Part shown: piece by piece, positions 6,747-61,877 of the stretch
Position numbering within the stretch: the stretch's first letter is position 1
Layout of the letters: each line of letters starts with the position of its first letter
The notes under the pieces: generated by a model
What the model was told of the DNA's origin: nothing
The model's database searches: none
The model's input: the letters and a program-made list of their open reading frames with translations, nothing else
Assembly: GCA_016205145.1 (NCBI GenBank)
Contig: JACQJH010000001.1
Location: forward strand, 451,501 to 515,500
Direction of reading: 5' to 3'
Length of the DNA stretch: 64,000 bases
Source of the DNA: Candidatus Iainarchaeum sp.
Lineage (GTDB): Archaea > Iainarchaeota > Iainarchaeia > Iainarchaeales > JACQJH01
Position numbers and translations under genes: made by a program

Positions 6747-7217
6747 ATGCGAAAATGGTGGCAAGTGGACAAAAAAATAAAATTCCTGTTGGTTGGGGCG
6801 GGGCTTTCAATTCTGCTTTTCATAATCATGGGAACGCCCACGGCCCTCGTGCCCAACCCATTCATTCACTACAAGAGGATGGTTGCCGCGGCATGGTTGG
6901 ACTATTTTTTTCTCGCCTCAACCTCGATAATGCTTGCGGCATTGATTTCGCTGAAACTGTATTTCAGGTCGGGGCGCGGCCTCGGCGCAAAAGAAATCGG
7001 CGGGGGCGCGCTGGGCTTTCTTGCGTTCAGCTGCCCGATTTGCAATGCTCTTCTCGTGGCTTTGCTCGGCGGCGCGACGATAATGGCGTTCGTGGAGCCG
7101 TTGAGGCCGCTGTTTGGAGTCGTGTCGATTGCGATTTTGGGTTGGCTTATTTATGGCGCGCTGAAATGCGGGGGATGCAATGGCGCCGCAGGCCGGCACG
7201 GCATGAAAATTAATTAA
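6747..7217 (+). CDS. CxxC membrane protein, paralog 2 (FSCPICNALLVALLGG; C-terminal CGGCNG).
   Basis: Same architecture as 1466-2017. Confidence 0.45.
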   Translation: MRKWWQVDKKIKFLLVGAGLSILLFIIMGTPTALVPNPFIHYKRMVAAAWLDYFFLASTSIMLAALISLKLYFRSGRGLGAKEIGGGALGFLAFSCPICNALLVALLGGATIMAFVEPLRPLFGVVSIAILGWLIYGALKCGGCNGAAGRHGMKIN

Positions 7218-14781: not shown

Positions 14782-15924
14782 TCACGCTATTGCCTTCATT
14801 GTGGCGAGAATCGAGTCGATTGTGTCCAGCAGTTCTTTCAGTTGTTCTTCCGTGGTGTCGCCCATGTGCGCTATCCTGAAAGTCTGCTGCTTGAGCTTGC
14901 TGTAACCGTTTGAAATCACATAGCCTTTTTTGCCGAGCTCTTCGTTCAGCTTGTCGATGTCGTATCCTTTCGTGTTTTTGATGCAGCTTAATGCGATTGC
15001 CTCGAAGCCCTTTTCCGGGAACAGTTCAAAGCCCTGTTCCTTGACCCAGGAGTGGCAGATGTTCCTCAGCTTTTCGTGCCTTGCAAACCTCTGTTCGAGG
15101 CCTTCCGCGAGCATGTTGTCAAGCTGTTTGTCCAGGCCGAACAATTGCGGTATTGCGGGCGTGCTCGGCGTATTGTTTTTCTGGTGGTATTTGTCCATTT
15201 CAATAAGGTCAAAATAATAGCCCCTGTTTTTCACTTCTTTCGCCTTGTCCAGCGCCTTCTGGCTCACGGATGCGATTGCCAGGCCGGGCGGCAAGGCAAA
15301 TGCCTTCTGCACTCCGGCAAGGCAGATGTCGATGCCGAAAGCGTCTGTGTCAATCGGCATTGCCGTCAGGCTTGAAACAGTGTCGACGCAGAAAATTGTT
15401 TCAGGATAGTCTTTCATCACTTTTGCGATTTGTTCAAGCGGGTTCAATACGCCGGTGGATGTTTCGCTGTGCACCAGCATTACAGATTCGTATTTTCCGG
15501 TTTCAAGCTTTTCCTTCAATGGCTCGGCCTTGTTTGCGAGGCCCCATTCCACGCTTAAAGCGTCGGCCTGCTTTCCGTTTGCGAGGCTGAGCCTGTGCCA
15601 CAGTTCGGAGAAGTTTCCGCATGTCATGTGCAGGCATTTTTCGTTTGCCGTGTTGCGCGAACAGGCTTCGAATGCGCCTGTGGAGGAGGACGTGAACATG
15701 AAGACCCTGTTCTTGGTGAACATTGCCTTCTGGATTTTCGGCTGGATTGAAGCGTACAGGCTTGCGAATTCCCTGCTCCTGTGCCCGATCATGGGCCTGC
15801 CTATCTCATGCCTGATTTCCTCGCTGACTTCCGTCGGACCCGGAATGAAAAGCCTTTTGTGCACTTCAAAATCCCCCCTAATTTCTGTTATATGCCTGAT
15901 AAAAGACTGATATTTAGCCGACAA
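14782..15924 (-). CDS. Class V aminotransferase (serine-pyruvate/phosphoserine aminotransferase-like).
   Basis: It starts with PGPTEV and has the length and motif pattern of PLP fold-type I. It is adjacent to serA. Confidence 0.75.
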   Translation of the reverse strand: MSAKYQSFIRHITEIRGDFEVHKRLFIPGPTEVSEEIRHEIGRPMIGHRSREFASLYASIQPKIQKAMFTKNRVFMFTSSSTGAFEACSRNTANEKCLHMTCGNFSELWHRLSLANGKQADALSVEWGLANKAEPLKEKLETGKYESVMLVHSETSTGVLNPLEQIAKVMKDYPETIFCVDTVSSLTAMPIDTDAFGIDICLAGVQKAFALPPGLAIASVSQKALDKAKEVKNRGYYFDLIEMDKYHQKNNTPSTPAIPQLFGLDKQLDNMLAEGLEQRFARHEKLRNICHSWVKEQGFELFPEKGFEAIALSCIKNTKGYDIDKLNEELGKKGYVISNGYSKLKQQTFRIAHMGDTTEEQLKELLDTIDSILATMKAIA

Positions 15925-16048
15925 CTTTTTTTAAAGCGTGCGTTCGGAGCCGGTTTCGTCCGGCTGGTTCGATGACGGGTATCTCGCGTTGCTCGATACC
16001 CATCTGCACTCAGCATTAAATGTTTCGGAGGCGTGCGACGGAGCCAGG

Positions 16049-17023
16049 TTATTCCTTGATTTCAGCGGCATCGATCTGCCCGTCGCCGTCCAAATCCAGG
16101 CCTTCGACAACTTTTGCGTGAATCCTTTCATTGAAAAGATTTGGCTTGGCAATCTTTTCAACGCTTTTTGCCATTGCGACAACCGCGGCCTTGGTGCCAG
16201 CATTGCGGTTTCCGGCTATGAGCAGAATGCGCTTGTCGCCGAAGAAAGGGTGTGGCGCCTTGACGATTATGCCTGTTGCGTCCTCGGTGTAGGTTTTTTC
16301 CGAAGCCGAGCTTTCAATGCCCCATGGGCCATTGCTTTGCACGAATTTTACGGGCAGCCTGTCGTTTATTTCCTGGCAGATCTTGTTTGTGATCGGCCCG
16401 CCGACAATGATTGCGTTGCTGTCAAGCTTTTCCAGTGACTCGACCATTGTGTCCAATAGCACGAAAGGGTATTTTATTTTGGAGGCATAACTGCCGAGGA
16501 TTGCTGCCAGTTCGACTGCCAGGTGGGAGTCCCTTGCCCTCGCCTTGAGCGGGCCGTGCGGATCGGGCGAGCCGATGATGATTTTGGCTGAAAAAACGCC
16601 CTTATGTATAAACGGTTCGAGGAATTCTGCAATCTCTTTAGGCACTTCCTTTTCCCTGCCTTCGATGGCCTGCTTTTCCCCGCCGGCATCCGGTGTAACG
16701 ATTGACACCGCGCCGAAGTCCGCGGAAAAGAATTTTGCCAGGGCGCCCTGTTTTTCCTGCGTCTTCTGCACCGACACAAGTCCGGATTTTTTCAGCTGGT
16801 TGATGTAATAGTATGCTTTCTGCTCCGGCATGCCCAGCTTTTTCGCCAGCTCGGCAGGATAAGCCGGCTTTTTCACCAGCTCAGAGTAAATTTTCCATGC
16901 GCTATCGCTGGCAAGCGGCCTTATTTCGCTTGCCTTGTGGGCAATTTTTGTGGCGATTCGCCTCCGGACCGCGTTCCTTTCAAATTCGACAAAATCCGCC
17001 AAAAACACCACCACTTTTAACAT
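16049..17023 (-). CDS. Winged-HTH transcriptional regulator with a central domain of unknown function and a C-terminal canonical EF-hand Ca2+-binding loop.
   Basis: The wHTH is AWKIYSELVKKPAYPAELAKKLGMPEQKAYYYINQLKKSGLV. The C-terminal DLDGDGQIDAAE matches D-x-D-x-D-G-x-I-x3-E. Confidence 0.5.
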   Translation of the reverse strand: MLKVVVFLADFVEFERNAVRRRIATKIAHKASEIRPLASDSAWKIYSELVKKPAYPAELAKKLGMPEQKAYYYINQLKKSGLVSVQKTQEKQGALAKFFSADFGAVSIVTPDAGGEKQAIEGREKEVPKEIAEFLEPFIHKGVFSAKIIIGSPDPHGPLKARARDSHLAVELAAILGSYASKIKYPFVLLDTMVESLEKLDSNAIIVGGPITNKICQEINDRLPVKFVQSNGPWGIESSASEKTYTEDATGIIVKAPHPFFGDKRILLIAGNRNAGTKAAVVAMAKSVEKIAKPNLFNERIHAKVVEGLDLDGDGQIDAAEIKE

Positions 17024-32440: not shown

Positions 32441-33637
32441 ATGTTGGTTTTGATGGCTGGGATCGGCAGGTTTGGAAAGTTCGGCGGCATTTTCGTGCCG
32501 GAAACCCTTATGCCGGCGTTGGAGGAATTGCAGGCGGCGTTTTCAAAGTATTCGAAGGACAAGGCTTTCAACCGCGAGCTTGATTATCTGCTTAAAGAAT
32601 ATGCTGGCAGGCCCACGCCGTTGACTTTCGCGGACAACCTTTCAAAAATCGTCGGGGCGAAAGTTTACCTGAAGCGCGAGGACCTGCTGCATACGGGCGC
32701 GCACAAGCTCAACAATGCTTTGGGGCAGGCCCTGCTTGCAAAGCGCATGAAAAAATCCAGGCTTATTGCGGAGACCGGCGCTGGCCAGCACGGCACGGCT
32801 GTCGCGACCGCGGGTGCAAAACTGAAATTCAAGACCGAAATTTTCATGGGCGAGGTTGACATTGAAAGGCAGAAGCCGAACGTTTTCCGGATGAAACTGC
32901 AGGGGGCAAAGGTTGTTCCGGTTTCAAGCGGGGGAAAAACCCTCAAGGACGCGATCAACGAGTGTTTGCGCGACTGGGTTGCAAGTTCCGGGTACACGCA
33001 TTACCTTCTCGGTTCGGCTTTGGGCCCGCATCCTTTTCCGGGCATGGTTGCGCATTTCCAGAGCGTCATTGGCAAGGAAGCCAGACGGCAGATTTTGAAA
33101 GCCGAGGGCAGGCTTCCGGATTCGGTTGTGGCGTGCGTGGGCGGCGGCTCGAACTCAATCGGCATTTTCAGGGAATTCCTGAAAGACAAAAAGGTCGGCC
33201 TGCTCGGAGTCGAGGCCGGCGGCCTGGGCATTGAAACCGGAAAGCATGCCGCGCGGTTTGCTGACAAAAAGCTGGGCAGGCCCGGCGTTATCCACGGCAC
33301 TTACACTTACGTTTTGCAGGACAAGTTCGGGCAGATTTACAACACGCATTCCGTGAGCGCGGGCCTGGATTACAGCGCTGTCGGCCCTGAACATTCGCTC
33401 TTGAAGGAAGCGGGCAGGGCAAAGTATTCTTACGCTACTGACCGGCAGGCATTGAATGCGTTCAAGGTCTTGTCGGAAGAAGAAGGAATCATTCCGGCTT
33501 TGGAAAGCGCGCACGCTGTCGCGTACCTGCTCAACCACAAAAACGAGTTCAAGGGCAAGACCGTTGTCTTGAATCTTTCCGGCCGCGGAGACAAGGACAT
33601 TTTCCACGCGGCAAAACAACTGGGTGAGGAAATTTGA
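32441..33637 (+). CDS. trpB: Tryptophan synthase beta chain.
   Basis: [13 protein letters not shown] and the PLP-Lys motif [13 protein letters not shown]. Confidence 0.92.
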
Positions 33638-34461
33638 AAAAAACAGGGGAAACGCGCGAAACGCGCTTTGAAAAAAGGTTTTCTGAATTGCGCTCGGCCG
33701 GGCGGCATGCCTTTGTGCCGTTCGTGGTTTTGGGCGACCCGGATTTTGAAACCTCGCTTGAAATAATCAGGACGCTGATTGCTTCCGGCGCTGATGCCCT
33801 TGAATTGGGATTTGCCTTCTCCGACCCGATTGCCGACGGCCCCGTGATTCAGGAAGCCGACCAGCGAGCGCTCGCATCCGGCATGGACACAGACAGGAAT
33901 TTCGAACTGTTGAAAAAAATCCGTTTGCTTGACGCGGAAATTCCAATCTCGCTGCTAATCTATTCAAATCTTATCCTGCAATTCGGCATTGACCGGTTTT
34001 ACAAAAATTGCGCGGAATGCGGCGTTGACGCGGTTCTCGCGTCAGACGTTCCAGTCGAGGAATCGAAGCCGTTCCTTGCCTGCGCGAAAAAATTCGGAGT
34101 GCACCAGATTTTTTTGGTCACGCCGAATGAAACCGAATCGAGGCTGAAAAAAATCCTCGCGGTCTCAAACGGTTATGTTTACGTTGTAGCGGTTCTTGGC
34201 GTTACCGGCGCGCGCGAAAACGTGCAGTCCGTGGCAAAGGGCCTGCTGCAAAAACTGGCAAAAAAAACAAGGCTGCCACTGCTCGTGGGATTCGGCATTT
34301 CGAAGCCGGAGCATGTGCGGGAAATCATTGCGTCCGGCGCGGACGGCGCGATTGTCGGCAGCGCAATCGTCAGGAAAATCGGCGAAAACCTTTCTGACAG
34401 GGAAATGCTTTTGCGTGAACTTAAGAAATTCGCCTCCAGTCTGAAAAGTGCTTCGCTCTGA
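33634..34461 (+). CDS. trpA: Tryptophan synthase alpha chain.
   Basis: The start overlaps the trpB stop. Motifs [11 protein letters not shown] and LVGFGIS. Confidence 0.87.
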
Positions 34462-34587
34462 CAAAAATTTGCTTTAAAAACCCTTGCCAGAAAAATTTTT
34501 CTAATCGGTTATCGCAGGCTGTCGCAGGCAGAGGGTTTGAGCGTAGCGAGAACCCTCAACGTCGCACCCGCCGGGCGATGACGGCGA

Positions 34588-34660
34588 GGGCCTGTAGCTC
34601 AGCTGGTAGAGCGCCGCATTCGCATTGCGGAGGCCACGGGTTCGAATCCCGTCGGGTCCA
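34588..34660 (+). tRNA. tRNA-Ala (anticodon CGC) with the G3:U70 identity pair. No CCA is encoded.
   Basis: Cloverleaf GGGCCUG/CGGGUCC acceptor, anticodon loop UUCGCAU, TUC loop TTCGAAT, discriminator A. Confidence 0.85.
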
Positions 34661-34662
34661 AA

Positions 34663-34790
34663 CACGCGCTTTCGATCGCGTGTGCCGAAACCAAGGCGTA
34701 TCACTGTCGTGATACGCCGGGTAAGCAAAAACGCGCTTTCAGCGGGACCGAAACCAAGGCGTACCGATGCTGCAGTTAACCGCGCGGGCT
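34663..34790 (+). repeat. Conserved tRNA-trailer structured module (copy A, with a degenerate second repeat): hairpin + GCCGAAACCAAGGCG + hairpin + CGCCGGGTAAGC.
   Basis: The same module with compensatory stem changes follows tRNA-Ser(UGA) and tRNA-Ser(GGA), and occurs at 51366. Confidence 0.5.
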
Positions 34791-34800
34791 TGATTGTGAA

Positions 34801-36048
34801 TCAGGTTTTTGCAATCGCGTTTTCAAGTTCCGCAATCAAATCGTCCGCATTTTCTATTCCCACGCTCAGCCTCAGCAGGCCGTCGGTGATTCCTTTCCTT
34901 TTGCGCTCTTCCGGCGGCAGGGAACTGTGCGACATTGTCGCGGGGTGGCTGACCAGGCTTTCGACTCCGCCCAGGCTTTCGCCGTAGGTCCAGATGTGCA
35001 GATGTTCAACGAGTTTTTCCGCTGCCTTCAGCCCGCCTTTGAGCTCGAATGAAACCATTCCGCCGGATCCGGTCTGCTGTTTTTTTGCAAGGCCGTGCTG
35101 TGGATGCCCTGCCAGGCCTGGGTAATGCACTTTTTCCACTTTCGCGTTGCCTTCGAGGAATTCCGCGACTTTTTGCGCGTTCTTGTTGTGCTGTTCCATT
35201 CTCAGGTGCAGGGTTTTCAGGCCCCTCAATGCAAGGAAGCATTCCATCGAAGCCATTATGCCGCCGGTCGCGCGCGCATTGAACCGCAGGTTTTCTATGA
35301 GCTCCAAATCATCCGAGCTGATGCTGCCGCCGACCACGTCATTGTGCCCGGCATAGTATTTTGTGAGGCTGTTCAAGACAATGTCTGCGCCGAATTTTTT
35401 TGGCTTCTGGAAATGCGCGGTCAGGAAAGTGTTGTCCACAAGCAATGGAATGCCGCGGCGTTCACAGGTTTCCTTCATCGCCTTGATGTCGACAAGCTTC
35501 AGCATTGGGTTTGTGGGTGTTTCGACAAAAACAAGCTTTGTGTTCGGCTTGAGGCTTTTTTCAAGATTTTCGGGTTTTGTCAAATCAACGAAGTCGGCCT
35601 GCGCCCCGAACTTGTCCAGGACGCGCTTTGTCAGCCTGTAGAACCCGCCGTAGCAGTCGTCGTTGAAAATGATGTGGTCCTTGTTCGAGAGCGTGTGGAT
35701 CAGTGCCAATGACGCGGCAATGCCCGAGCCGAAGCAGACGCTTTGCCCGTAGCCTTCAAGATGCGACATCGCCTTTTCAAGAACCTCGCGCGTCGGCGTT
35801 GACATCCTGCCGTATTCGAAGCCGTGCGGCCTGCCGATGCCGGCCTGCCTGTAAGTTACGGCCTGGTGGATGGGCGTGCAAATTGCCCCCGTTGCGGCGT
35901 CCTGCTGGTTGCCGCCATGCACGCACAAGGTCTCGAAGCCCAGCTTCTTTTCCTCGCCCTTCCCAATCACGTCAAGTGTGTACGCCATCGAAGAAAACCC
36001 TCTGCTTACAGAAACCCCCTTTATTCTTTTTATAATAATTGTTGACAT
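34801..36048 (-). CDS. Cys/Met-metabolism PLP-dependent enzyme (cystathionine gamma-synthase/beta-lyase/O-acetylhomoserine sulfhydrylase family).
   Basis: The PLP-lysine motif is NSLTKYYAGHNDVVGG. The likely true start is the internal MAYTLDVIGK. Confidence 0.82.
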   Translation of the reverse strand: MSTIIIKRIKGVSVSRGFSSMAYTLDVIGKGEEKKLGFETLCVHGGNQQDAATGAICTPIHQAVTYRQAGIGRPHGFEYGRMSTPTREVLEKAMSHLEGYGQSVCFGSGIAASLALIHTLSNKDHIIFNDDCYGGFYRLTKRVLDKFGAQADFVDLTKPENLEKSLKPNTKLVFVETPTNPMLKLVDIKAMKETCERRGIPLLVDNTFLTAHFQKPKKFGADIVLNSLTKYYAGHNDVVGGSISSDDLELIENLRFNARATGGIMASMECFLALRGLKTLHLRMEQHNKNAQKVAEFLEGNAKVEKVHYPGLAGHPQHGLAKKQQTGSGGMVSFELKGGLKAAEKLVEHLHIWTYGESLGGVESLVSHPATMSHSSLPPEERKRKGITDGLLRLSVGIENADDLIAELENAIAKT

Positions 36049-51031: not shown

Positions 51032-51189
51032 AAACCTTTAAACACGAACACAACACCAAAAACCGCACGAACGCCTTGAATGCAAAAGAGAAAAAGAGTG
51101 TTTCCCGAAACCGCGGAAATTATGTCCAATCCCAAAACATATTTAAAAAGTTGCAGGCAAAAACCTTGAAAGTGTTGGGAGTTGAAGGG

Positions 51190-51365
51190 GCGAGTCATAC
51201 CGCTTGCGGTTCCCTGGCTTGCCCTCTCATTTTTATCCTGAGCCGCTTTCGTCCGGCTCGCCGTCTCGTCCGGCGGGTACGTTTTGTGGTGTTCGCGCCG
51301 TTGCGGAACACCACGCATGCTTTGCGGGGTTTGCAAGGGGTGCAACCCCTGCGTTTTATCCGGCT
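51190..51365 (+). ncRNA. Candidate structured ncRNA of unknown identity, made of multiple GC-rich hairpins. The strand is uncertain.
   Basis: Nested inverted repeats (GAGCCG..CGGCTC, GTGGTGTTC..GAACACCAC, GGGG-TGCAA-CCCC). No ORF. It is directly followed by a copy of the tRNA-trailer module. Confidence 0.2.
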
Positions 51366-51411
51366 GGTTCGAAACCAAGGCGGCCTGCTGTTGCAAGCCG
51401 CCGAGTGAGTC
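51366..51411 (+). repeat. tRNA-trailer-like module copy B (GGTTCGAAACCAAGGCG + hairpin + CGCCGAGTGAGT), not preceded by a recognisable tRNA.
   Basis: Core GAAACCAAGGCG and CGCCGAGT, with a distinct stem sequence. Confidence 0.4.
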
Positions 51412-51531
51412 AGTACTCCTGACCCTCCCCCGAAATTCCTGATTTTTTCCCACAAAAACCATTAAAAAACTCCCTGACCAAGAATAGTTCAAGGCACCGG
51501 AATCAAAGTGCCAAAAAGCCACCATCAAATT

Positions 51532-51735
51532 GCGGGGGTGGCGGAGCGGTCTAACGCGCCAGCCTTGAGAAACCTTTTTCTTTCTTGAGAAGAAAGAAAA
51601 AGCTTCAATGCAAAATCAAAGATTTTGCATGCATCAAAAATTTGATTTTTGATGTACCAAAAAGAAAGAACCGTTCTTTGTTTCAGGCAAGCTGGTATCC
51701 GAAAGGATGCGCGAGTTCGAATCTCGTCCCCCGCG
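51532..51735 (+). tRNA. tRNA-Ser (anticodon UGA), class II, with an approximately 120-nt intron in the anticodon loop.
   Basis: Exons give a GCGGGGG/CCCCCGC acceptor, a 3-bp D-stem with an 11-nt loop, anticodon stem CCAGC/GCTGG, loop CUUGAG|A, a long variable arm, TTCGAAT, and G73. The intron is 51570-51689. Confidence 0.75.
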
Positions 51736-51736
51736 A

Positions 51737-51800
51737 GCACGCAGTTTCGGCTGCGTGGAGCGAAACTAAGGCGGTTCACACTGTGAACCGCCGAGTAAGC
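51737..51800 (+). repeat. tRNA-trailer module copy C.
   Basis: Hairpin CACGCAG-TTTCGG-CTGCGTG, then GAGCGAAACTAAGGCG, a hairpin, and CGCCGAGTAAGC. Confidence 0.5.
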
Positions 51801-51887
51801 AAAAAAATCACATCGCGTTTTTCGCCTTGCAAAACCGGTTTCGTTTTTAAACATTTTCCACCCAATCTTGGACAAGGTGAGTTGTGG

Positions 51888-52442: not shown

Positions 52443-52640
52443 ACCAAGCCTGCCCCTCTTTTTTTATTCTTTATTTAACAGCTTTTGGTATGTTAGGATA
52501 AGCCGCCGGGCGGCAGAGGCATTGAGCTTTTGCGAAATGCCTCAACATCGCACGTTGGCGACGAAAACGCGCTGAAAGCGCGTAGGGCTATGCGAGTGAA
52601 ACGAGCATAGTGCGTCGCACCAGACGGGCGATGACGTCTT

Positions 52641-52824
52641 GCGGGGGTGGCGGAGTGGTCTAACGCGCCAGCCTGGAACTGCCCTTTCTTTTCTTTGAAA
52701 AAGAAAAGAAAGTGCAAGGTGCCCAAAGAAAAGAAAACGGGCCATTGCCCGGAAAAGGCGCTTTGCAAGGCACCAACAAGCTGGTTTCCGCAAGGAAGCG
52801 CGAGTTCGAATCTCGTCCCCCGCG
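52641..52824 (+). tRNA. tRNA-Ser (anticodon GGA), class II, with an approximately 100-nt intron.
   Basis: The exons are near-identical to the tRNA-Ser(UGA) exons. The anticodon loop is CUGGAA|A. The intron is 52679-52778. Confidence 0.75.
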
Positions 52825-52888
52825 TGCCGCTTTCGGGCGGCAGTGCCGAAACCAAGGCGTATTGCTAATCGCAATACGCCGAGTAGGC
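52825..52888 (+). repeat. tRNA-trailer module copy D.
   Basis: Hairpin TGCCGC-TTTCGG-GCGGCA, then GTGCCGAAACCAAGGCG, a hairpin, and CGCCGAGTAGGC. Confidence 0.5.
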
Positions 52889-52943
52889 TCAATCAGGCAA
52901 AAAGGCTATTAAGCTTTAGCAGAAAGAATTAATCTTACTCAAA

Positions 52944-53026
52944 GCGGGGTTACCCAAGCGGTTAACGGGAGCGGGTTGAGGGCCCGTAGCTTAGTGCTTA
53001 CAGCGGTTCGAATCCGCTACCCCGCA
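52944..53026 (+). tRNA. tRNA-Leu (anticodon GAG), class II, with no intron.
   Basis: Acceptor GCGGGGT/ACCCCGC, anticodon loop UUGAGGG, long variable arm, A73. An integrase gene lies immediately downstream. Confidence 0.8.
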
Positions 53027-53087: not shown

Positions 53088-54209
53088 ATGATTAAGACAG
53101 AATCGCAGCTTTCAAACTACTTTTCTGGGTTCGAGGAACAGATAGGCAAGCACAACGCCCAGTTAATAATTGCTTTTGCCGAAAAGCACAGGGCGACCGT
53201 TACAGAGCCGAGCCTTCAACGAATTAGCACGGTTTGCATTCGTTTGAAGTCTATTGCCAAGTGGCTGAACAAGCCTCTGGACAGGCTAACCGAAGCCGAC
53301 CTAATCAGGCTTAACACGGCAATGCGCGACAAGGGCATGAAGTCAAGCGCGGACTACCGGCAATGCCTAAAGCACTTTTTCAAGCTGACCGACAAAAAGC
53401 GTTTCTATGACCTCATTGAATCAGAATACCTGCGAAACGTCAAGAAAAAGGGCACAGACCAGCTTGTGGACGCGGAAGAATTTTGGAGTCAAAGCCAATG
53501 CAACGATTATCTCATGGAAAGCCTTAACCGTTCCAAAAGGCACGGTGCGTTTGCTGCAATTTGGTTGTCGTGTGGCATGAGGCCGCATGAAATAATGGGT
53601 TTGCATAAGGCAGACCTTGAATTGGATGGACAAAGCCTTGTAGTCAAGGTTCGGAGCGGCAAAACCGGCAAAAGAACAATCGTGTTAAACGGCAACGAAG
53701 GAACAGGGGTTTTTCGATATGTTGAGCCTTACCTTGACACTTTGAAAGACAACGAAAAGCTATTTTCCCTGACTTACAAGGCCGTTGAAAAATGCCACCA
53801 CAACATTTGTGAAAAAATAGGCTTGCCGGAAGGCAAAAGCCGAAAGCTTTACATGAGCAGAAAACGGACTTTGACACGCTGGTATAACGAGTTTGGGCTT
53901 GTCAAGGCCGCCAAAATGTGCGGCCACGTGCAAGGCGGTCGGGCAATGAAACACTATTTGGACATGACCGACGAGGAATTGAAGGAAAACAAGCGGCCGG
54001 AACGCCTTGAAAACAAGGTTTGCCCCAATCCAAATTGCAAGCAAGTCAACGAACCGCTTAGCGGCCTATGCTCCAAATGCAGCAGCCCGCTGGACAGGGA
54101 ACGCTTTGACGAGCTGATAAAAAGCAGCTTGGACGAACTGGTTGAAACAAAAATTGCGCTGGCAATCGTCAAACTCCAAAATGAAGCCCTGAAACTCAAA
54201 ACCCAATAG
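53088..54209 (+). CDS. int: Tyrosine recombinase/integrase with a C-terminal zinc ribbon.
   Basis: Catalytic region RPHEI...GHVQGGRAMKHY. C-terminal CPNPNC...CSKC. Confidence 0.85.
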   Translation: MIKTESQLSNYFSGFEEQIGKHNAQLIIAFAEKHRATVTEPSLQRISTVCIRLKSIAKWLNKPLDRLTEADLIRLNTAMRDKGMKSSADYRQCLKHFFKLTDKKRFYDLIESEYLRNVKKKGTDQLVDAEEFWSQSQCNDYLMESLNRSKRHGAFAAIWLSCGMRPHEIMGLHKADLELDGQSLVVKVRSGKTGKRTIVLNGNEGTGVFRYVEPYLDTLKDNEKLFSLTYKAVEKCHHNICEKIGLPEGKSRKLYMSRKRTLTRWYNEFGLVKAAKMCGHVQGGRAMKHYLDMTDEELKENKRPERLENKVCPNPNCKQVNEPLSGLCSKCSSPLDRERFDELIKSSLDELVETKIALAIVKLQNEALKLKTQ

Positions 54210-54759
54210 GCTGCCCTTCATGTGCCAACAAAAAGGTTATAAATGCCAGACGATTTATTTACTGTATGAATAGTGCCGGAGCAGGCAATGTTGATGCAAT
54301 AGCTGTTTTTGGTGTTGCCGGAGCGATTTTAGGCGCAATTTTTCCCATTTTTGGAACCAACACCGTCATAGTTGGGCTGTTTGCCGGCATAATAATAGGG
54401 TTCCTTATACAACGGGGGTGATTTTCTGGACACCCCAACATATATAGCAATTTTTGGGCTGTTTGCAGTTCTCCTTCTAATATACCGAAAATTCGTTCTG
54501 AAAAAAGAACTGTCATACAGAATTTATTTTGTGGTTATTCTCGGAACGTTATCTGTTGCAGAAGCCACGTCCGCAATCATTTTGTATTTTTTTAATTTGG
54601 ATTTGGGGATTATAAGCAAAGATTTGCTGTTTGTCGTTGCGGGTGGCTTAATGCTTTTGTTTTCTTTGGGTTTTGTTTTTCGGGAAATTCGCGAGACCGA
54701 AAAATAAGGTTAAGAGCGCTGGAAAAAGGAAAGAAAGGCACATTAGCGGTAGACTAAAA

Positions 54760-55236
54760 CTAATTCTTGCGTTTTCTATTTGAAGTCCTTCTTTTTGCTT
54801 TTGTCTTATAAACTTCGTTTACCAACTTGTTAGAGTAATAACCCCTAATATCTATGCCCAATTCTTCACATGCTTTTTTTCTGGATTTGCCTTGCCGCTT
54901 TTTATTTAAAAGCCTTTTTTTCAAATATTCTCGGTTGTGTTCTGGGCGAATGCCAGAAACCAAAATTTTTTGCACCTTGTTAAACTGTCTTTTCTTAATT
55001 ATCGACTTTTTCGACTCACAATAAAACCCATTTCTAAGAATATAACTGATTGAGCTAACTGGCATTTTCATTATTTCCGCTGTTTTTCTGATTTCAAATT
55101 CTTCCAAAAAGACCTCAAAAATATGTCTAACCTTGTTGGCTGCTTTCTTATCAATAGTCAAAACCTGTATTACCTTCTTTTCTAGTTTATAGCCTAGCGG
55201 GGCACGCCACAAAATTTTATTGCTCATACTAATCAC
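54760..55236 (-). CDS. Basic HTH DNA-binding protein in the element cargo.
   Basis: HTH-like TAEIMKMPVSSISYILRN and a Lys/Arg-rich C-terminus. Confidence 0.35.
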   Translation of the reverse strand: MISMSNKILWRAPLGYKLEKKVIQVLTIDKKAANKVRHIFEVFLEEFEIRKTAEIMKMPVSSISYILRNGFYCESKKSIIKKRQFNKVQKILVSGIRPEHNREYLKKRLLNKKRQGKSRKKACEELGIDIRGYYSNKLVNEVYKTKAKRRTSNRKRKN

Positions 55237-55344
55237 ACTAGTTCTAACTGGGTTTTAAACCAATATGTGGGGTGGCTTCTTGAACAGTATTCGTCAAACT
55301 TTTTTAGAAATGTTTTTCTTGGTCAAAGGGGGTATACTATGGGG

Positions 55345-55503
55345 ATGATTATGCCATCACAAAAACGATTCGGGAAAAAAATGAAACTTTGCGTTAGCGA
55401 GGCAATGTTTGCCCGTTTGCAAAAACTCGCCAAAAAAGAGGAGACGACAATTGCGGAAATCGTTCGCGCCACCCTGAAAAGGGAAGTAGGGGCGGAATTA
55501 TGA
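55345..55503 (+). CDS. Ribbon-helix-helix (CopG/Arc-like) protein.
   Basis: KLCVSEAMFARLQKLAKKEETTIAEIVRATL has the beta-strand plus two helices pattern. It is preceded by a GGGGG RBS. Confidence 0.45.
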   Translation: MIMPSQKRFGKKMKLCVSEAMFARLQKLAKKEETTIAEIVRATLKREVGAEL

Positions 55504-55651
55504 CCTTGTTCGCTGGAATTCCTGTGGAGAAAATTCGAAAAAGTGCGGAACTCCGCGAGGCGTTCCTTGAACTCAAAAAGGCTTTCGAGCCGGGGCGCAT
55601 TGAAAAATAAAAAAAGGCGAGGCCCTGCAAGACCTCGGCCAAAAAGAAGGT

Positions 55652-55915
55652 ATGCCAATGCAGATTACGATTTCTAGAAATAAAAGCACGGGGCTGGCGC
55701 TTTACGACGGCAAAGCCTGCGCGGTTTGCGGGGCAACGAAAGGAGGGGCAAAACGTTGGGTGTTTGTGTTTTCATACTGTCAAAAAGCCAAGGTTTGCGG
55801 CCCGTGCGTTTTTCAAATAGGCCCAGCAAATGTTTCCGAGTGGCTTGAAAAAAAAGCTGTTTTTGACAAAAAAGGCTATTTGACCGGCTTTCGGCCGGGG
55901 GTGGTCGTCCCGTGA
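55652..55915 (+). CDS. Small Cys-cluster (zinc-finger-like) protein.
   Basis: CAVCG...YCQKAKVCGPC. Confidence 0.35.
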   Translation: MPMQITISRNKSTGLALYDGKACAVCGATKGGAKRWVFVFSYCQKAKVCGPCVFQIGPANVSEWLEKKAVFDKKGYLTGFRPGVVVP

Positions 55916-56514
55916 CCTCTACACCGGATGAAACAACAACGCTTGAAGAGAGCAGGCGAGTTTCGGAATTGAAGCACCTGAGCAAGGAAGCTTTTTTGAT
56001 ACAGATTACCGCAACGGAAAAGAAGATTCAGGAAGCTTTAGTAGCTGTGAAAAAACTCCATGCCAATGCCGAAATTATTTTGCAGGGAACCGCACTTGGC
56101 AAATTTGGAAAACTCGCAGACAAAGCTTTTACAGTTCTTCAAAAAAATGGCCAATTTTCAACAAACGATGCTAGCAAATTTGGCGTATTTGGTTCAAGAG
56201 ACCTGGACAAACTCTTCACTGAAATCTCAAAACGTTATCCTGAAGTGCGAACACAAAAAACCACGTTGTACGGCTCCAACCAGAAAATTCGGGTCGCAGT
56301 AATTGACGTACACGAGTTCGAAAAGGCAAAATCTGGGCCTTACAATGACATTCGCAATTTTGTCGTTGAGAAAAATCCGACACGTGACCAACTCATTGAA
56401 AAGTTTGGCTGGGGCGAAAAAGTCGCTAATGATACAATCGCATTGCTTGCGCGGAAGGGAATGCTTTGCTGGTCAGATGGCAGATATTCCTGGGAGGACG
56501 CTCAACTAGTCTGA
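55912..56514 (+). CDS. Hypothetical element protein of 200 aa.
   Basis: It is translationally coupled to the upstream ORF. No motif was recognised. Confidence 0.3.
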   Translation: MTSTPDETTTLEESRRVSELKHLSKEAFLIQITATEKKIQEALVAVKKLHANAEIILQGTALGKFGKLADKAFTVLQKNGQFSTNDASKFGVFGSRDLDKLFTEISKRYPEVRTQKTTLYGSNQKIRVAVIDVHEFEKAKSGPYNDIRNFVVEKNPTRDQLIEKFGWGEKVANDTIALLARKGMLCWSDGRYSWEDAQLV

Positions 56515-57178
56515 GGGAGTTGGGTTGTTGTAGAGTAGTATAGTAGAGTTGAAAACATATATCTCAACTAACTCCCCCCTACTTAGTTGGGTACGTTATA
56601 GGTCTATGAAAAATTATGAGAGAAAAGGAATGTTCCCAACTGGTTAAGGGGAGTTGGGTATTTTGTAAGGTGTTTTTGTGAAAAAGTCTGAAACTCAGCT
56701 TGTCCGAACAAACCTTTTGTTGCCTGAGTCTTGCCGGGCTGTGTTGAGGTTAGTTGGCTCTGGTAGCTTGTCAAAAGGTTGCAGAATTTTGGCACAGCAG
56801 GCGATTAAAACAGAGTTTGCGGCTGGCAGGCCGCGAAAATTTGACGGCGGGAAAGGCAAGGAAAATGTTGCGCATTACCACACTGGTTTTCAGAGTGCTT
56901 TCGATATACTTGAACAGCAAAAGAAGGTGGTTGGTTGAATAAAAAGAAGCGGCAAAGGCGTGTGCAGGAGTTTCTGTTTTTGGACGAGCCAACGCCCACA
57001 GCCTTGTTCCTGAAGCTGAACCGGCTTTCAAGGCAAGGCTGGCGAACCGAAATTACTGACGTCCACCATACCGAGTTTTTCCGTTCCTGCACGGCTGTTG
57101 TTTCGTGGCGTCGTGTCATGCCGCGTTTTAGCATTTCCTACACGGGAAAGGGAAACTGAAGTCAAAGGAGGACTGACT

Positions 57179-57544
57179 ATGAAAAATGCAGAAATTAAGA
57201 AAACAAAAGAAGAAACGCCATCAACCCTTGGGAACGAAACGTCTGATGAGGAAGCCGAACCAGGGCCGAAACCCAAAGGCAGGCCGCCGAAATCTTCCAT
57301 AAAAATCGAAGGCGAACCGCAGCAGGACGCGTGCGAAAAAATGCAGCAGTTGGCAATTTGTTTGACCTCGATTGACATGAGCAAGCTTTCATGGCTGAAG
57401 AGGAAAGGCCATTTTTCATACCTGTCCGAAACGATGCGGGAACTCGTGCGTGCCGAGTTTTTGCGGCTGCACCCCGAACCACCATTGTGGCCGGATGATA
57501 GTGTTTGGAAGAAACAGGGGAAGGACAAGACGACGGTTGGTTGA
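57179..57544 (+). CDS. Hypothetical protein with an AT-hook-like GRP motif (PKPKGRPPKSS).
   Basis: A GGAGG RBS precedes the ATG at 57179. Confidence 0.3.
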   Translation: MKNAEIKKTKEETPSTLGNETSDEEAEPGPKPKGRPPKSSIKIEGEPQQDACEKMQQLAICLTSIDMSKLSWLKRKGHFSYLSETMRELVRAEFLRLHPEPPLWPDDSVWKKQGKDKTTVG

Positions 57545-59097
57545 GGCAAGAAGGTGGTTTGTTTGGTGAAATCGAGGCGAAAGCTGCTCAACGAACTCGG
57601 CGGCTTGAGGCGCAGCAATAACGCTTTGAAAAGCGAGCTTGACGCATTAAGATTGCCGGAAGGCGAGCTTTGGCGCAAGGCGCATACATTGTTTCAAGAA
57701 AACCTGCGGCTTCGTGCAGAATTGGAACAGATACGAAAACAGAGGGCTAGTTTCCCATGAAACCCGCAGCAATCGCACAGGATTCACACAACTTCTGACA
57801 GGATTGCAACCAAAACAGACCTTTTTGGGCGTTTTTCAGTCATTTTAAGCCCATTTTGGGCTTGTTTTGAAGCCTTTTCCGGCTGCTTTCTCGGCCGGTG
57901 AGGGGTGTGTGTGAGATGCTTTTTGCTGGGCTACTTTTATCTGTAAACCCCATTAAATGATTCGCAAAGTAATTTGACGATTACCAAAAAAATTTTTTTC
58001 GATGGCAACTGCTGCCGCAATAGCATTTGTTTAGGGTGGTTGGATGGCTCGGAAAATCATTGGGCGATACCTATTATCGAGAGGTGTCTCTATTATTGGC
58101 CGGTCAAAAATCAAAAACAAAGCCAATTTTCCAAAAAATTTTCAGAAAACCGAGTATCGACTCGACGAAAAGAAAAGCGTTTACTTGCAATGGGCTGAAA
58201 TCAGGGATGCGTGGGTTAACTTCCAAAGCCTCGATGACCTGACCACTTGGCTGGAAGACATTTTGCCTAACGCTTCCGGCAAATATTATATCAGATGCTT
58301 CGCTGAATGGCACGCGTTCATTCCCCAGCCAACCACAAAGAAACGGTTGAAAAGAAAACGCGGCCGACCGTTCAGCAAAAAGGAAAGAAAGTTTAGAATT
58401 GGTTGGGACATCATTTGTGCCTTTGCCATAGAATCCGGCACGGTAATGAGAGTCTTCGCGCACAAGCGAGGCAAAACCGATTATTCGCCGAAGCGGCGGA
58501 ATGCTTACTGGCTTTTGGGTGCAATCCAAGACCAGAAGGAAGGCAAGCATGTCTTCGACCAGATTTAAAGGCGGGCAAAGCCTACATGCTTTTTTCGCAA
58601 ACCATTTGCCTTCAACCCGCAACGCCCTGCCCCGCAAACGGTTAAGGCATTGCCAGCAAGGGAGTTTAGTAGAAAAGCCCCGCATTTGCCTTCAAGCCAA
58701 GCAGGAGCGCGGGCGCAAAAGCCTTGCAGTTGAAATTAAGCCATGCCAACAAAAGATTAACCATGCTGGCTGCGCGTCCATAAAATCATTTGCGAAAATC
58801 GCAAGCCAAAAGGGCAGGAGTTGTGAGGCCATTTCTCATTAAGGCCTTAACACTTTTGAAAAGCGTTGACGAATACAAGCCCTTTCCCGAAAACCCTTTC
58901 GACTATTCCAGCCAGCCCCTTGTGCAGAAAAGCCCCACAGAAGGCTTCAAGGCTTTCCACTTCACCGGCGAAAAATGCCTAAAGAATAGTTCAACATATG
59001 CAGCAAAAACATTGCGCTTTTGAAAAGTGTTTGCCTTTCAATCAAAAGCCTTCAACGCTTCTCTAAAGGGTCAATTGTTTTTCATTCATTTCTCGTT

Positions 59098-59946
59098 TTA
59101 TTGGAGTTGCACTTCAATTGGAATTGCTATTTCTGGAGTGCCACAAATAATAGAATATGGCGTCACTGAGTTGTCAACTTGTCCAACACAAATGGTAACT
59201 GAGCCTGCTTCATTCTGGCTTGTAGAGCCATAACTCGAATAAGCTATTTTTAGTACAGTGCTTTGTTTTGGTCTTAAATTATATAACTCATCTTCGAACC
59301 CTATAATACCAACGTTATGCGATGTGCTATTAATTGACGTTCTAATGCCCTGCACCTCAAAATCAGAATCGTTTGTTATTGTAAGTGTTTTTTCATCCTT
59401 ATAGACCGTTTCTTTGATACTTGGTTCGTTTGGATAAACCGGCATGCTTTTCGGAGTCAAATCAATTTTTTTCGGGGCGACTTCCAGTTTTATTTCTGGC
59501 GGTGGAATTTGGAATGTTTTGCAGTCGGATGAATTAGACACGCAATAACGGATAGGGGAAATTTCTAGAGACTCTGATTGCAACAGTATGCCAATGAGAG
59601 AAGCTGAACAAACACTTTGTGGTTCACAAGAAATAGTGGTTGGCAAAGAGTCCACCGCGCTAATGCTATCATAATATATATTTAGCTCAATAGCTTTACC
59701 TTCATTTGACTTATTTTCAAATTTTACCTCTGCTGTTCCAATGGGTCTTATATCTTGTTTTGCGCCTATCGCCGCCATATCAATTGGATAGATAGATTTC
59801 CAGTTTGCCCCTTTAAATTCAATCGAGTCTATTTTAGGTTGGGCTTGTTGGATACAGCCGGTTAAAAAAATTCCTGTCAAAAAGACTGCAATCAAGATTA
59901 GCAAAATATTCCGGCCAGGTCCTAATTTTTCCCAATTATTGTTCAT
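59098..59946 (-). CDS. Secreted or lipoprotein-like element protein.
   Basis: N-terminal TM/signal with LTGC. The domain is beta-rich and Ser/Thr-rich. Confidence 0.35.
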   Translation of the reverse strand: MNNNWEKLGPGRNILLILIAVFLTGIFLTGCIQQAQPKIDSIEFKGANWKSIYPIDMAAIGAKQDIRPIGTAEVKFENKSNEGKAIELNIYYDSISAVDSLPTTISCEPQSVCSASLIGILLQSESLEISPIRYCVSNSSDCKTFQIPPPEIKLEVAPKKIDLTPKSMPVYPNEPSIKETVYKDEKTLTITNDSDFEVQGIRTSINSTSHNVGIIGFEDELYNLRPKQSTVLKIAYSSYGSTSQNEAGSVTICVGQVDNSVTPYSIICGTPEIAIPIEVQLQ

Positions 59947-60035
59947 TATACCACACTCTTATTGTCAAAACCCAGTATAAATATGTTACGTTACTGTTAC
60001 TCTGGCTTTAATTTAGGGGTTCAGTCACTAATTCT

Positions 60036-60284
60036 ATGTCTGAGTATGACCTGTTGGCGCAGATTAGGCGCGGCAAGATTAAACCCCAAATCCTTAAGCT
60101 TTTACAAGAACCAAAAACGCCAACAGACTTGAAAAAGATTATCGGAGCCCATAGAGAAACAATCAGCAGAGCAATACTCGAAATGGAAGAAAAAGGCCTA
60201 GTAACTTGTCTGAACCCAAAACAACCAAACTTTAGGTACTATCAAATTACAAACAAAGGAAAAAACCTATTGAAGAAAGTATGA
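60036..60284 (+). CDS. Small winged-HTH (ArsR/MarR-like) regulator.
   Basis: ILKLLQEPKTPTDLKKIIGAHRETISRAILEMEEKGLV. Confidence 0.45.
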   Translation: MSEYDLLAQIRRGKIKPQILKLLQEPKTPTDLKKIIGAHRETISRAILEMEEKGLVTCLNPKQPNFRYYQITNKGKNLLKKV

Positions 60285-60302
60285 GAATTTCTTATTTGCA
60301 CC

Positions 60303-61265
60303 CTAGTTAAGTAATTTTTCGCATTCTGCACTTGATTCACGCCATATACAAAATGTTACTTCTTTTTCTAGGGGGTATGACTGTTCTGTGCAATTTTCAC
60401 AATAGAGGGATACATTTAATTTGTGTAAGCCCACGGGGACGTTTTCTGGGTTACACTTTTGTTTATGTGCCCCGTCTGGCCTCTCGCTGCAGGCATTGAA
60501 TGAAATTTTCATATCTCTTTTTGTGCTTTCTAATCCGCTTAGGTTTTGGATAGTACTTTCTAGTATTTGTGGCCAGAAAATGCTATTTACGCCATTGCTG
60601 TCCTTCTCATTTGCAAGCATAGTAATTATTCCGGTATCTGTAATACCAAGATTTTGCAGTTTAAGTTTTAACCAACCGCCCGAGATTTGTTTATAATTCC
60701 CATTTTCATCAGTTTCAAATTTTGCTATTTCGCTGGCACTAAAAAATAAATCTGTTTTTTCGTCACCAAAACTTGTTTGCAAGTATGGAATGATATGTGG
60801 CGTTCTATCTAAAGTTGTGGCTAAAAGCCGTGTTTGATTCGACATCTCTTCAACTGTTTTCTTGTTTTCATTTAAAAAAGAGGCATTGAAGTATGCGCCC
60901 ACGAGAAGCGCGGCTAGAGTTATTACTGCAACTACTTTTGAAATATTTAAAGAAAAATTCGCAATCTTTGAATTTTCTTCTGCTTTGTCAGCTAGTTTTT
61001 TTGCCGATTCTGCAATTTGTTTTGTTTCTTCCACCATACTTTTTGTTGCAGCTATATTTCTATCTTGTCTTTCTAGTGAGTGCCAAAATTTTCTTTTATT
61101 ATCTTCGGCTTTGAAAGGCTCAGCCCTGCTATCTGTGAGTTTGTAGGCAAAACGAACAACTAATTCGACTTCTTCGTCTGTGCAATCGGACATGTTTCTT
61201 TTGCCAGTCACTACACTGTTAGCAATCTCAATAGCTCTGTTTTCGTCACTGAGCATAAAAATCAA
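60303..61265 (-). CDS. Membrane/coiled-coil protein with a C-terminal Cys-rich module.
   Basis: A TM helix, a long alpha-helical region, and a C-terminus CSERPDG...CNPEN...CENC...FCIW...C. Confidence 0.35.
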   Translation of the reverse strand: MIFMLSDENRAIEIANSVVTGKRNMSDCTDEEVELVVRFAYKLTDSRAEPFKAEDNKRKFWHSLERQDRNIAATKSMVEETKQIAESAKKLADKAEENSKIANFSLNISKVVAVITLAALLVGAYFNASFLNENKKTVEEMSNQTRLLATTLDRTPHIIPYLQTSFGDEKTDLFFSASEIAKFETDENGNYKQISGGWLKLKLQNLGITDTGIITMLANEKDSNGVNSIFWPQILESTIQNLSGLESTKRDMKISFNACSERPDGAHKQKCNPENVPVGLHKLNVSLYCENCTEQSYPLEKEVTFCIWRESSAECEKLLN

Positions 61266-61270
61266 TTAAA

Positions 61271-61831
61271 CTATGTTAAATCAAGTAAGTCCGTTTTGTT
61301 AGCAAGGTTGAGTAGGCCAGTGGAAAAAACCCAAGACGCAATCGCTAATGTGCCAAGTCCTGCCACTGCCAATATAACTTTGGCGATAAAAATTACTTGT
61401 GCTACAATAACCTGATTACTAAACAGCAACATTAATTTTACTAGAGGACTTTGATTAAACTCAGTTGTCGATAAATAAATTGTAGCATTAAAAAAAATTA
61501 ATCCGAAAATAAAAAGAATGGTGGAAGTAAAAAAGTTTTTTCCAGATTCTGTCGCAATTGTCTTTTGTTTTTTTTCATTCACTGCTCTGCTAAATTCAAA
61601 ACTTAGGAGGCTAAATGTTGTTGAAACAACAATTGCTGCTTCCCATAGCACGAAATATTCGGCAAATTCGTTCAATCTATTTATGTCTGGAATTAATCTA
61701 AGGATAAACGCAAATATTGCCAACGTAACTAAGCCGGCAATCATAACTGCCGACAATTTAATGGCAATTTTTATAATTTTGTTTATTTTTTTCTTAATAT
61801 TGGACTTGTCGAACTTTTTCAATAAAAACAC
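61271..61831 (-). CDS. Polytopic membrane protein (AT-rich cargo).
   Basis: Multiple hydrophobic helices. Confidence 0.35.
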   Translation of the reverse strand: MFLLKKFDKSNIKKKINKIIKIAIKLSAVMIAGLVTLAIFAFILRLIPDINRLNEFAEYFVLWEAAIVVSTTFSLLSFEFSRAVNEKKQKTIATESGKNFFTSTILFIFGLIFFNATIYLSTTEFNQSPLVKLMLLFSNQVIVAQVIFIAKVILAVAGLGTLAIASWVFSTGLLNLANKTDLLDLT

Positions 61832-61877
61832 CTATTAATTTGGTTGAAATTTACGATTCAAATACGAAAATCAACAA

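Follow-up and report, generated by a model that had tools for sequence, protein, structure and literature searches.

A covarying two-hairpin element behind tRNA genes of a Diapherotrites (DPANN) lineage resembles REP/MITE-type repeats

The 64-kb window (the whole stretch of DNA analysed here) carries several tRNA genes on its plus strand. tRNA-Ala(CGC), located at 34588-34660, was found with ARAGORN and scores 70.9 bits with the Rfam tRNA model; its A73 lies at 34660 and its CCA is not encoded. Further along are two intron-containing genes, tRNA-Ser(UGA) at 51532-51735 (intron of ~115 nt; recognised from the sequence and from an Rfam tRNA score of 39 bits) and tRNA-Ser(GGA) at 52641-52824 (intron of ~100 nt; 43 bits), and then tRNA-Leu(GAG) at 52944-53026 (ARAGORN/Rfam tRNA search). 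TATA-like boxes are present upstream of the tRNAs. The sole integrase gene seen in the window (53088-54209) lies downstream of tRNA-Leu and beside it. A candidate small RNA, also on the plus strand, was located at 51168-51236; a TATA-like box of its own precedes it at ~51140, it ends in T5 and it has no match in an Rfam search. Its trailer contains an HP1-like hairpin (see below for HP1) of the form GAGCCG-CUUUCGUC-CGGCUC (51239-51260, plus strand).

Behind three of these tRNA genes we found copies of one structured element, which we call type A. Its hallmark is the 13-mer CGAAACYAAGGCG, present in five exact matches in the window, all on the plus strand and starting at 34686, 34749, 51370, 51761 and 52847; the remaining similar matches carry two mismatches each, which is chance level. 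The element measures ~70 bases. In full copies a first hairpin (HP1) is followed by a linker of 3-4 nt, the core CGAAACYAA, a second hairpin (HP2) and the tail GRGURRGC. Three of the five exact cores belong to full copies, one to an orphan copy and one to a degenerate copy, and a variant copy adds to them.

The three full copies, all on the plus strand, begin 0-4 nt past the discriminator base of tRNA-Ala, tRNA-Ser(UGA) and tRNA-Ser(GGA). The tRNA-Ala copy spans 34661-34726 (minimum free energy -32.1 kcal/mol, folding z-score -4.4, 87 bits) and consists of HP1 at 34663-34684 with the loop CUUUCGAU, the core CGAAACCAAGGCG at 34686-34698, HP2 at 34695-34718 and the tail GGGUAAGC at 34719-34726. 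The tRNA-Ser(UGA) copy (51736-51803; z -6.0, 78 bits) has HP1 at 51738-51757, the core at 51761-51773, HP2 at 51770-51792 and the tail GAGUAAGC. In the tRNA-Ser(GGA) copy (52825-52890; z -4.0, 81 bits), HP1 occupies 52825-52842, the core 52847-52859 and HP2 52856-52880, and the tail reads GAGUAGGC. tRNA-Leu(GAG), which has no element, serves as a negative example.

The other copies depart from this pattern in different ways. Directly behind the tRNA-Ala copy lies a degenerate tandem repeat of it (34727-34795, plus strand), in which the core is intact at 34749-34761 and both hairpins are eroded; it reaches 8 bits and a folding z-score of +1.3. The first-pass annotation, whose sequences and coordinates are all present in the window, had counted four to five copies. 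Five exact cores are present, one of them in this degenerate second tRNA-Ala copy. The orphan copy (51345-51416, plus strand; core 51370-51382, HP2 51379-51402, tail GAGUGAGU) has a badly formed HP1 and scored 45 bits and 63 bits in separate scorings. It had been described as a copy without a tRNA. No tRNA indeed precedes it, yet it trails the small-RNA candidate at 51168-51236, and since this candidate has a TATA-like box of its own and is identical in the related contig L051, the orphan, too, is located behind a stable-RNA-like gene.

A sixth, variant copy, which the annotation had not listed, was detected at 15943-16013 on the plus strand. This type B variant (28.6 bits) has HP1 of the form AGCCGG-UUUCGU-CCGGCU, the linker GGUUCGAUGAC and HP2 of the form GGGUAUC...GAUACCC; together with the module AUUAAAUGUUUCGGAGGCGUGCGACGGAGCC that follows, it extends over 15943-16048. 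Its neighbours are two protein genes on the minus strand, no tRNA is close by, and the direct repeat GCGTGCG..GGAGCC occurs on either side of it. A search of its locus (15500-16600) gave no Rfam match at E<=5.

Both hairpins of the element covary strongly. HP1 is a stem of 6-8 bp with a loop of U(UUCG)R type, confirming the UUUCGR loop recorded earlier, and HP2 comprises 10 bp on a fixed GGCG/CGCC base; the HP2 arms quoted in the annotation are perfect inverted repeats. Its linker "G(Y)GCC" fits some copies, while the Ser(UGA) copy reads GGAGC. Folding z-scores of the three full window copies range from -4.0 to -6.0. For a covariation test, 13 copies from the window and from related contigs were aligned with a covariance model. 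In this alignment 92.8% of cells are paired, as opposed to 19-49% for slid controls, and changes on both sides occur in 11 of 16 pairs, values that none of 500 shuffles reached. RNAalifold, applied to seven copies, predicted the two hairpins and nothing else, with compensatory changes in 9 of the 16 pairs. The conserved, covarying two-hairpin module that had been proposed at tRNA 3' ends is thus real, and its covariation extends beyond the copies on which the proposal was based. Within the window genome the HP1 and HP2 stems differ from copy to copy and still remain paired, while the unpaired core is identical. A recent burst of a neutral repeat would not leave stems that have diverged by compensatory changes around an unchanged core; the pattern indicates that each resident copy has long been under selection.

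Further pairings were considered. A closing helix P2 (GCC/GGC) is paired in 48% of cells, which is the level of shuffled alignments. A 3-bp ACY/RGU extension under HP2 is 85% paired (U-A in five, C-G in two and C.A in four copies), which is compatible with pairing but not significant. The HP1 loop UUUCG could form a pseudoknot with CGAAA (98% pairable), but since both sides are invariant, this pairing has no covariation support and allows no conclusion. The linker of 3-4 nt looks too short to cross a stem of 6-8 bp, which speaks against the pseudoknot, and the loop may just as well be a U(UUCG)R tetraloop. For the invariant unpaired core, no partner was found. Likenesses to Loop-E/sarcin-ricin (AGUA/GAA), T-loop and 5S-loop-C motifs, noted by eye, do not hold in all copies and are not supported by Rfam. 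A leader-trailer helix or bulge-helix-bulge (BHB) was discarded as well; folding of pre-tRNA-Ala gave a 5-bp contact only, which is not conserved at the other loci.

The element belongs to no Rfam family. At the gathering thresholds of Rfam 15, tRNA alone was matched in the window, and when two tRNA-linked loci were searched at E<=10, no relevant family appeared, the best overlapping matches (9-16 bits) being noise. Neither do the copies form a CRISPR array, in agreement with the first-pass annotation: scattered at 34.7, 51.4, 51.7 and 52.8 kb, they have dissimilar stems, and every one of them trails a gene. C boxes (RUGAUGA), D boxes (CUGA) and C'/D' boxes of C/D box sRNAs occur in no aligned copy, and no snoRNA or sRNA model of Rfam matches the element. 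A K-turn, the site of L7Ae, was sought by eye in the consensus, where CAA-GGCG on the 5' side faces CGCC-GRGUA on the 3' side; tandem GA pairs appear in neither register and Rfam lends no support.

We also considered a small, so far undescribed kind of self-cleaving ribozyme, which would trim the tRNA 3' end or process the cassette itself. Speaking for it are the size of the element, its mobile-repeat context and the two helices, which vary while the nucleotides at their junction do not. The string GCCGAAAC resembles the hammerhead core, and the order of parts is pistol-like, with an HP1 loop complementary to CGAAA. We nevertheless hold a ribozyme to be extremely improbable. No Rfam ribozyme model (hammerhead, pistol, HDV-like, hatchet or twister) is matched at E<=10 at the two tRNA-linked loci; the CUGAUGA partner is absent, P2 is unsupported, and the loop-core pairing, besides being invariant and without covariation, is sterically doubtful with so short a linker. 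A hammerhead split over leader (GGGCGAUGAC) and trailer (CGAAAC) was rejected separately: its stem II is impossible, and tRNA-Ser(UGA) does not have this leader motif.

Next, we looked for the element in other genomes. Scanning JGI metagenome contigs with a pattern of core, HP2 and tail returned five contigs. In three of them the match lies directly 3' of a tRNA, namely tRNA-Pro(UGG) in L036, tRNA-Gln(CUG) in L037 and tRNA-Lys(CUU) in L038; L040 is identical to L036. The fifth, L039, has a copy without a tRNA (83 bits), antisense in a 117-nt spacer between DUF655 and ksgA-like genes, and no promoter is evident on the strand of the element. Contigs with close homologs of the FKBP gene of the window yielded orthologous loci (L048 and L051) and more copies. 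Related contigs thereby add at least eight copies to those of the window; the search for further copies proposed in the annotation was thus answered by tRNA-Pro, tRNA-Gln and tRNA-Lys. Seven full copies (from the window, L036, L037, L038 and L048) start 0-4 nt after the discriminator in the sense of the gene, behind six tRNA species (Ala, Ser-UGA, Ser-GGA, Pro-UGG, Gln-CUG and Lys-CUU). The samples behind the related sequences include Rifle-type groundwater.

The whole data set amounts to ~14 copies from few, poorly sampled genomes. Among 185,579 species-representative genomes, the core-plus-HP2 pattern gave 34 matches, all of them single, bacterial and hairpin-less and hence due to chance; the same holds for seven matches in viral contigs, all hairpin-less. 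We conclude that the element is a genuine, unannotated RNA motif from a narrow, poorly sampled lineage, the GC-rich Diapherotrites clade. AT-rich Diapherotrites relatives (37% GC; L052 and L054-L057) contain no type-A copy. Even within the GC-rich clade several tRNAs are devoid of it, namely tRNA-Leu of the window, tRNA-Pro(GGG) in L036, tRNA-Pro(UGG) in L058 and a tRNA at L038:26-127, so the element is not required for tRNA maturation. A hairpin directly 3' of a tRNA recurs in several members of the phylum: five of the 11 tRNA trailers examined in AT-rich relatives (L052, L055 and L056) open with a hairpin of CUUUUCUUUUU/AAAAAGAAAAG type, and in the close relative L058 a GC hairpin occupies the post-tRNA position. 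The presence of other hairpins in the same place points to a positional role of the trailer hairpin.

At seven loci the element is situated on the strand of the tRNA, between the discriminator and the terminator. Oligo-T runs follow it in the form of T9 in L037, T6 in L038 and T5 in the window, at 51818-51822 behind the tRNA-Ser(UGA) copy and at 34806-34810 behind the tRNA-Ala unit, where this first T5 run is likely an archaeal termination signal. Behind tRNA-Ser(GGA) and in L036, the element directly precedes the TATA-like sequence of the next tRNA; in the window this is CTATTAAG, followed by tRNA-Leu. As the element falls within the stretch that runs from the RNase Z site (discriminator +1) to the first oligo-T, it is most likely transcribed as a 3' trailer. 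From this layout we infer co-transcription with the tRNA and release by RNase Z.

The same layout might suggest that the hairpins form a termination or insulator element, helping archaeal RNA polymerase to stop or pause before the next promoter. The element indeed always has the tRNA on one side and the first T-run, or else the next TATA-like box, on the other, and in L036 and behind tRNA-Ser(GGA) such a box comes immediately after it. We nonetheless find this very improbable. Archaeal transcription termination is not known to need more than oligo-T, and an invariant core of 13 nt would be left unexplained. An intrinsic terminator can be dismissed outright: HP2 is followed by the conserved GRGURRGC, and the U-run lies 8-25 nt past HP2 or is absent. 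The objection that the element could be a terminator variant without a conserved core is thereby removed.

Since the element starts immediately after the tRNA, RNase Z would create its 5' end. The released RNA might therefore be a trans-acting or protein-binding sRNA, expressed from a dicistronic tRNA-sRNA gene, with the invariant CGAAACYAAGGCG...GRGURRGC as its functional site. The unpaired segments are the most conserved and the stems vary freely, as is typical of functional RNAs; the tRNA-less copies (the orphan and that of L039) could be independent genes; and there is a DPANN precedent in tRNA-Val followed by sRNA8 (PMC3491384). Set against these points, C/D or H/ACA boxes, a K-turn and an Rfam match are all lacking, no target complementarity was found, a multi-copy sRNA with locus-specific stems would be unusual, and no promoter is evident on the relevant strand of L039. 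On our assessment an sRNA of this kind is quite improbable.

The element turns over between related genomes. The locus consisting of a DNA ligase gene, tRNA-Pro(UGG) and tRNA-Pro(GGG) exists in two versions, L036 and L058, the latter obtained with a protein query that returned DNA ligases. L036 carries an insertion of 129 nt exactly 3' of tRNA-Pro(UGG), without any counterpart in the ortholog. This insertion comprises a type-A element and the module AUUAAAUGUUUCAGGGGCGUGCGAGGGGGCGGAGCC, together with a stretch that resembles a degenerate T-arm, and ends in a direct repeat of 11 nt, GGCAGCCCCAA, which is a copy of the tRNA-Pro 3' end. In L058, whose ligase segment is 88% identical, the tRNA runs straight into the hairpin AGCCG-AACGCC-CGGCU. 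Duplication of the tRNA 3' end was seen in L036 only and is absent at seven other tRNA loci tested, six of them with an element. The module behind the element of L036 is shared with the type B variant at 15943.

Two further comparisons lead in the same direction. Between the window and L051, the promoter, the 140-nt leader, tRNA-Ser(GGA) and its intron are 96.3% identical, whereas the trailer shows 29.8% identity, the drop starting at discriminator +1. The neighbouring FKBP gene is just 76% identical at the nucleotide level, while the small-RNA candidate at 51168-51236 is identical in both. At the tRNA-Ser(UGA) locus, the window has one copy and L048 two tandem copies; the element itself is 66% identical between them, as opposed to 85-93% for its surroundings (85% just downstream, 93% for the FKBP gene in nucleotides). 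Hairpin cassettes in the leaders are likewise indel-polymorphic and swapped between loci. The comparison of the tRNA-Ala locus with L059/L060 was uninformative for lack of conserved synteny. In all, multiple dispersed, intergenic, palindromic copies are found, they are polymorphic by insertion or deletion among related genomes (L036/L058, window/L048 and window/L051), and no terminal inverted repeats are present in the element. These comparisons show that the cassettes undergo gain, loss, tandem duplication and exchange between loci, much as REP/MITE-like repeats do.

In view of such turnover, the element may be purely selfish, a MITE-like or miniature integrative element using tRNA 3' ends as a safe haven without any function for the host. 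Its hairpins and core would then be mobilisation signals, in ssDNA or RNA, for a recombinase, transposase or reverse transcriptase encoded elsewhere. Presence and absence at the orthologous tRNA-Pro locus, together with the 11-nt repeat of the tRNA end and the degenerate T-arm-like stretch before it, speak for a selfish element, and so do the antisense copy of L039, the direct-repeat-flanked variant at 15943, the changes in tandem copy number and the rapid replacement among close relatives. Moreover, the copies of L036, L038 and L039, from two related metagenomes, have the same HP2 with the same C.A mismatch. What makes us consider pure selfishness unlikely is the lack of terminal inverted repeats and of a conserved target tetranucleotide, target duplication at a single locus, and the compensatory divergence around an identical core described above for the window genome. 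In addition, no transposase or RAYT was seen in the 64-kb window, where the integrase at 53088-54209 stands beside a tRNA without the element.

The explanation that we favour, with confidence and doubt about evenly balanced, combines mobility with use by the host. The element would be a lineage-specific, REP/MITE-like structured cassette that is transcribed as a trailer and kept for its fold and its core. Its probable role would be to cap the 3' end or to serve in processing, after which RNase Z removes it. It would belong to a family of short, GC-rich, hairpin-forming cassettes residing in transcribed flanks of stable-RNA genes of the GC-rich Diapherotrites clade. In the RNA, two independent hairpins would be joined by the invariant CGAAACYAA, possibly with the ACY/RGU extension of HP2. 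Such a cassette would let the trailer fold up separately, clear of the acceptor end, and shield the primary transcript against 3'-to-5' decay until RNase Z cuts it off as a whole; a protein would make contact with the invariant unpaired core. The copies of L039 and of window position 15943 lie antisense in spacers of protein genes and cannot be explained by a trailer function. Because of these copies and of the cassette-like turnover, reading the element as nothing but a dedicated tRNA-processing RNA is too narrow.

A bolder version of this proposal is that type A represents an undescribed class of functional RNA, a portable post-tRNA cassette released by RNase Z, in which CGAAACYAAGGCG...GRGURRGC binds a dedicated protein or is catalytic, perhaps within a pathway of tRNA 3'-end maturation or quality control peculiar to the lineage. 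We regard it as rather unlikely; if true, it would turn what looks like junk repeat DNA into a mobile RNA-processing module.

tRNA 3' trailers commonly pass for disposable sequence without structure. In the DPANN lineage studied here, many tRNAs have a conserved, covarying two-hairpin module directly at their RNase Z site. If functional, the module would point to a step or factor of tRNA 3'-end maturation or stability in archaea that has gone unrecognised. If it is selfish, its strong, directional targeting of tRNA 3' ends would, to our knowledge, be unusual for a prokaryotic miniature repeat. In either case the RNA motif is new, a covariance model of it is at hand, and it bears on the remodelling of archaeal tRNA flanks and introns by modular cassettes.

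Several known systems invite comparison. Variable helices around invariant junctions, a similar size, a loop complementary to a downstream segment and the string GCCGAAAC recall pistol and hammerhead ribozymes, but there is no Rfam match at these loci, the other conserved nucleotides are missing and the tertiary pairing does not covary. Dicistronic tRNA-sRNA genes processed by RNase Z are known from archaea, and tRNA-snoRNA counterparts from plants. In Nanoarchaeum equitans, the C/D box sRNA8 lies behind tRNA-Val in one dicistronic gene (PMC3491384), and there, as in our case, a structured RNA starts immediately after a DPANN tRNA. Unlike such dicistrons, the element has no C/D or C'/D' boxes, guides or K-turn, and one module stands behind many tRNAs instead of different sRNAs behind each.

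Mobile elements are a documented cause of heterogeneity at archaeal tRNA loci (PMC3293823). As in the attL/attR scars of integration into tRNA genes, a repeat of the tRNA-Pro 3' end delimits the insertion of L036, and the sequences of different genomes cease to agree precisely where the tRNA ends. In contrast to such scars, the inserted DNA comprises only ~129 nt without an integrase, most copies show no duplication of the tRNA end, and the integrase island of the window is situated at tRNA-Leu, which has no element.

REP and BIME repeats of bacteria and MITEs of archaea offer a closer parallel, being likewise short, multi-copy, intergenic cassettes of imperfectly palindromic sequence, gained and lost at the strain level, arranged in tandem and occasionally inserted in opposite orientation. 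REP repeats can act as 3'-end RNA stabilisers, a second role that the element plausibly shares. It differs from these repeats in lacking terminal inverted repeats and a GTAG-type head, with no RAYT or transposase seen in the 64-kb window, in consisting of two different hairpins and an invariant unpaired core, and in its strong, directional tie to tRNA 3' ends in a DPANN archaeon. Taken together, the element seems to work most like a structured repeat of REP/MITE type, set apart by its invariant unpaired core and by an unusual, directional specialisation for that side of tRNA genes on which RNase Z cuts.

Long structured 5' leaders of tRNA genes lie at 34519-34587 and 52500-52640 of the window, at 1540-1680 of L051 (the contig orthologous to the FKBP/tRNA-Ser locus of the window) and at 690-768 of L061, and they are also found ahead of tRNA-Pro(GGG) in L036 and L058, two contigs with orthologous tRNA-Pro loci. 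Hairpin cassettes are their building blocks. One type reads GGCAGAGG-stem-UGAGC...-stem-CCUCAAC(G/A)UCGCAC; another is a hairpin that lies 2-5 nt 5' of the tRNA and keeps an invariable loop, GGGCGAUGAC. Stems of this latter hairpin covary (CGCC/GGCG versus AGAC/GUCU). Although the leaders are 96% conserved across genomes, cassettes were gained, lost or exchanged among loci.

Leaders of tRNA-Ala and tRNA-Ser(GGA) in the window measure about 85-140 nt. On the related metagenome contigs L038 (1350-1383) and L037 (1666-1704), tRNA-Lys and tRNA-Gln would be near-leaderless: the position of their TATA-like boxes predicts transcription starts at, or a few nucleotides from, the mature 5' end.

In each of two genomes, at loci unrelated to one another (L036 3140-3175; window 16014-16048), the two-hairpin element, a repeat of about 70 bases, is directly trailed by a conserved module, AUUAAAUGUUUC(A/G)G(G/A)GGCGUGCGA..GGAGCC. 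A TATA-like box is contained in this module. In L036, where another tRNA comes next, it may act as that gene's portable promoter.

A candidate small RNA with the shape of a hairpin, about 65 nt long (GUGUUGGGAGUUGAAGGGGCGAGUCAUACCGCUUGCGGUUCCCUGGCUUGCCCUCUCAUUUUU), was located at window 51168-51236. Its copy in L051 is identical, while the adjacent FKBP gene retains 76% nucleotide identity. A TATA promoter-like box is seen at about 51140, ahead of the candidate, and T5 forms its 3' terminus. Rfam returned no match for it.

Downstream of tRNA-Leu(GAG), a gene of the tyrosine-recombinase (phage integrase) family begins after 62 nt, and the next 9 kb or so consists of ORFs that match no Pfam family, at a reduced GC content (36-46%, against 52%). 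The region 53088-63000 is probably an element that integrated at the tRNA-Leu gene; a second copy of the tRNA 3' end, as expected for an attR, was not found within the 64-kb window. The tRNA-Ala gene is directly preceded by trpB-like and trpA genes (32441-34461). Genes for making tryptophan and a GC content of 52% are, as far as is known, unusual in a DPANN-type archaeon.

Both tRNA-Ser genes of the window carry introns of about 100-115 nt (51569-51690 and 52676-52775), both composed of CU-rich/AG-rich hairpins, CUUUCUUUUCUUUGAAAAAGAAAAGAAAG...GUGCAAGGUGCCC. Compared by eye, these hairpins closely resemble tRNA 3' trailers of AT-rich Diapherotrites relatives (L055, about 7000-7128, and the trailers of L056). 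A single type of cassette seems to be used as an intron by one lineage and as a trailer by another.
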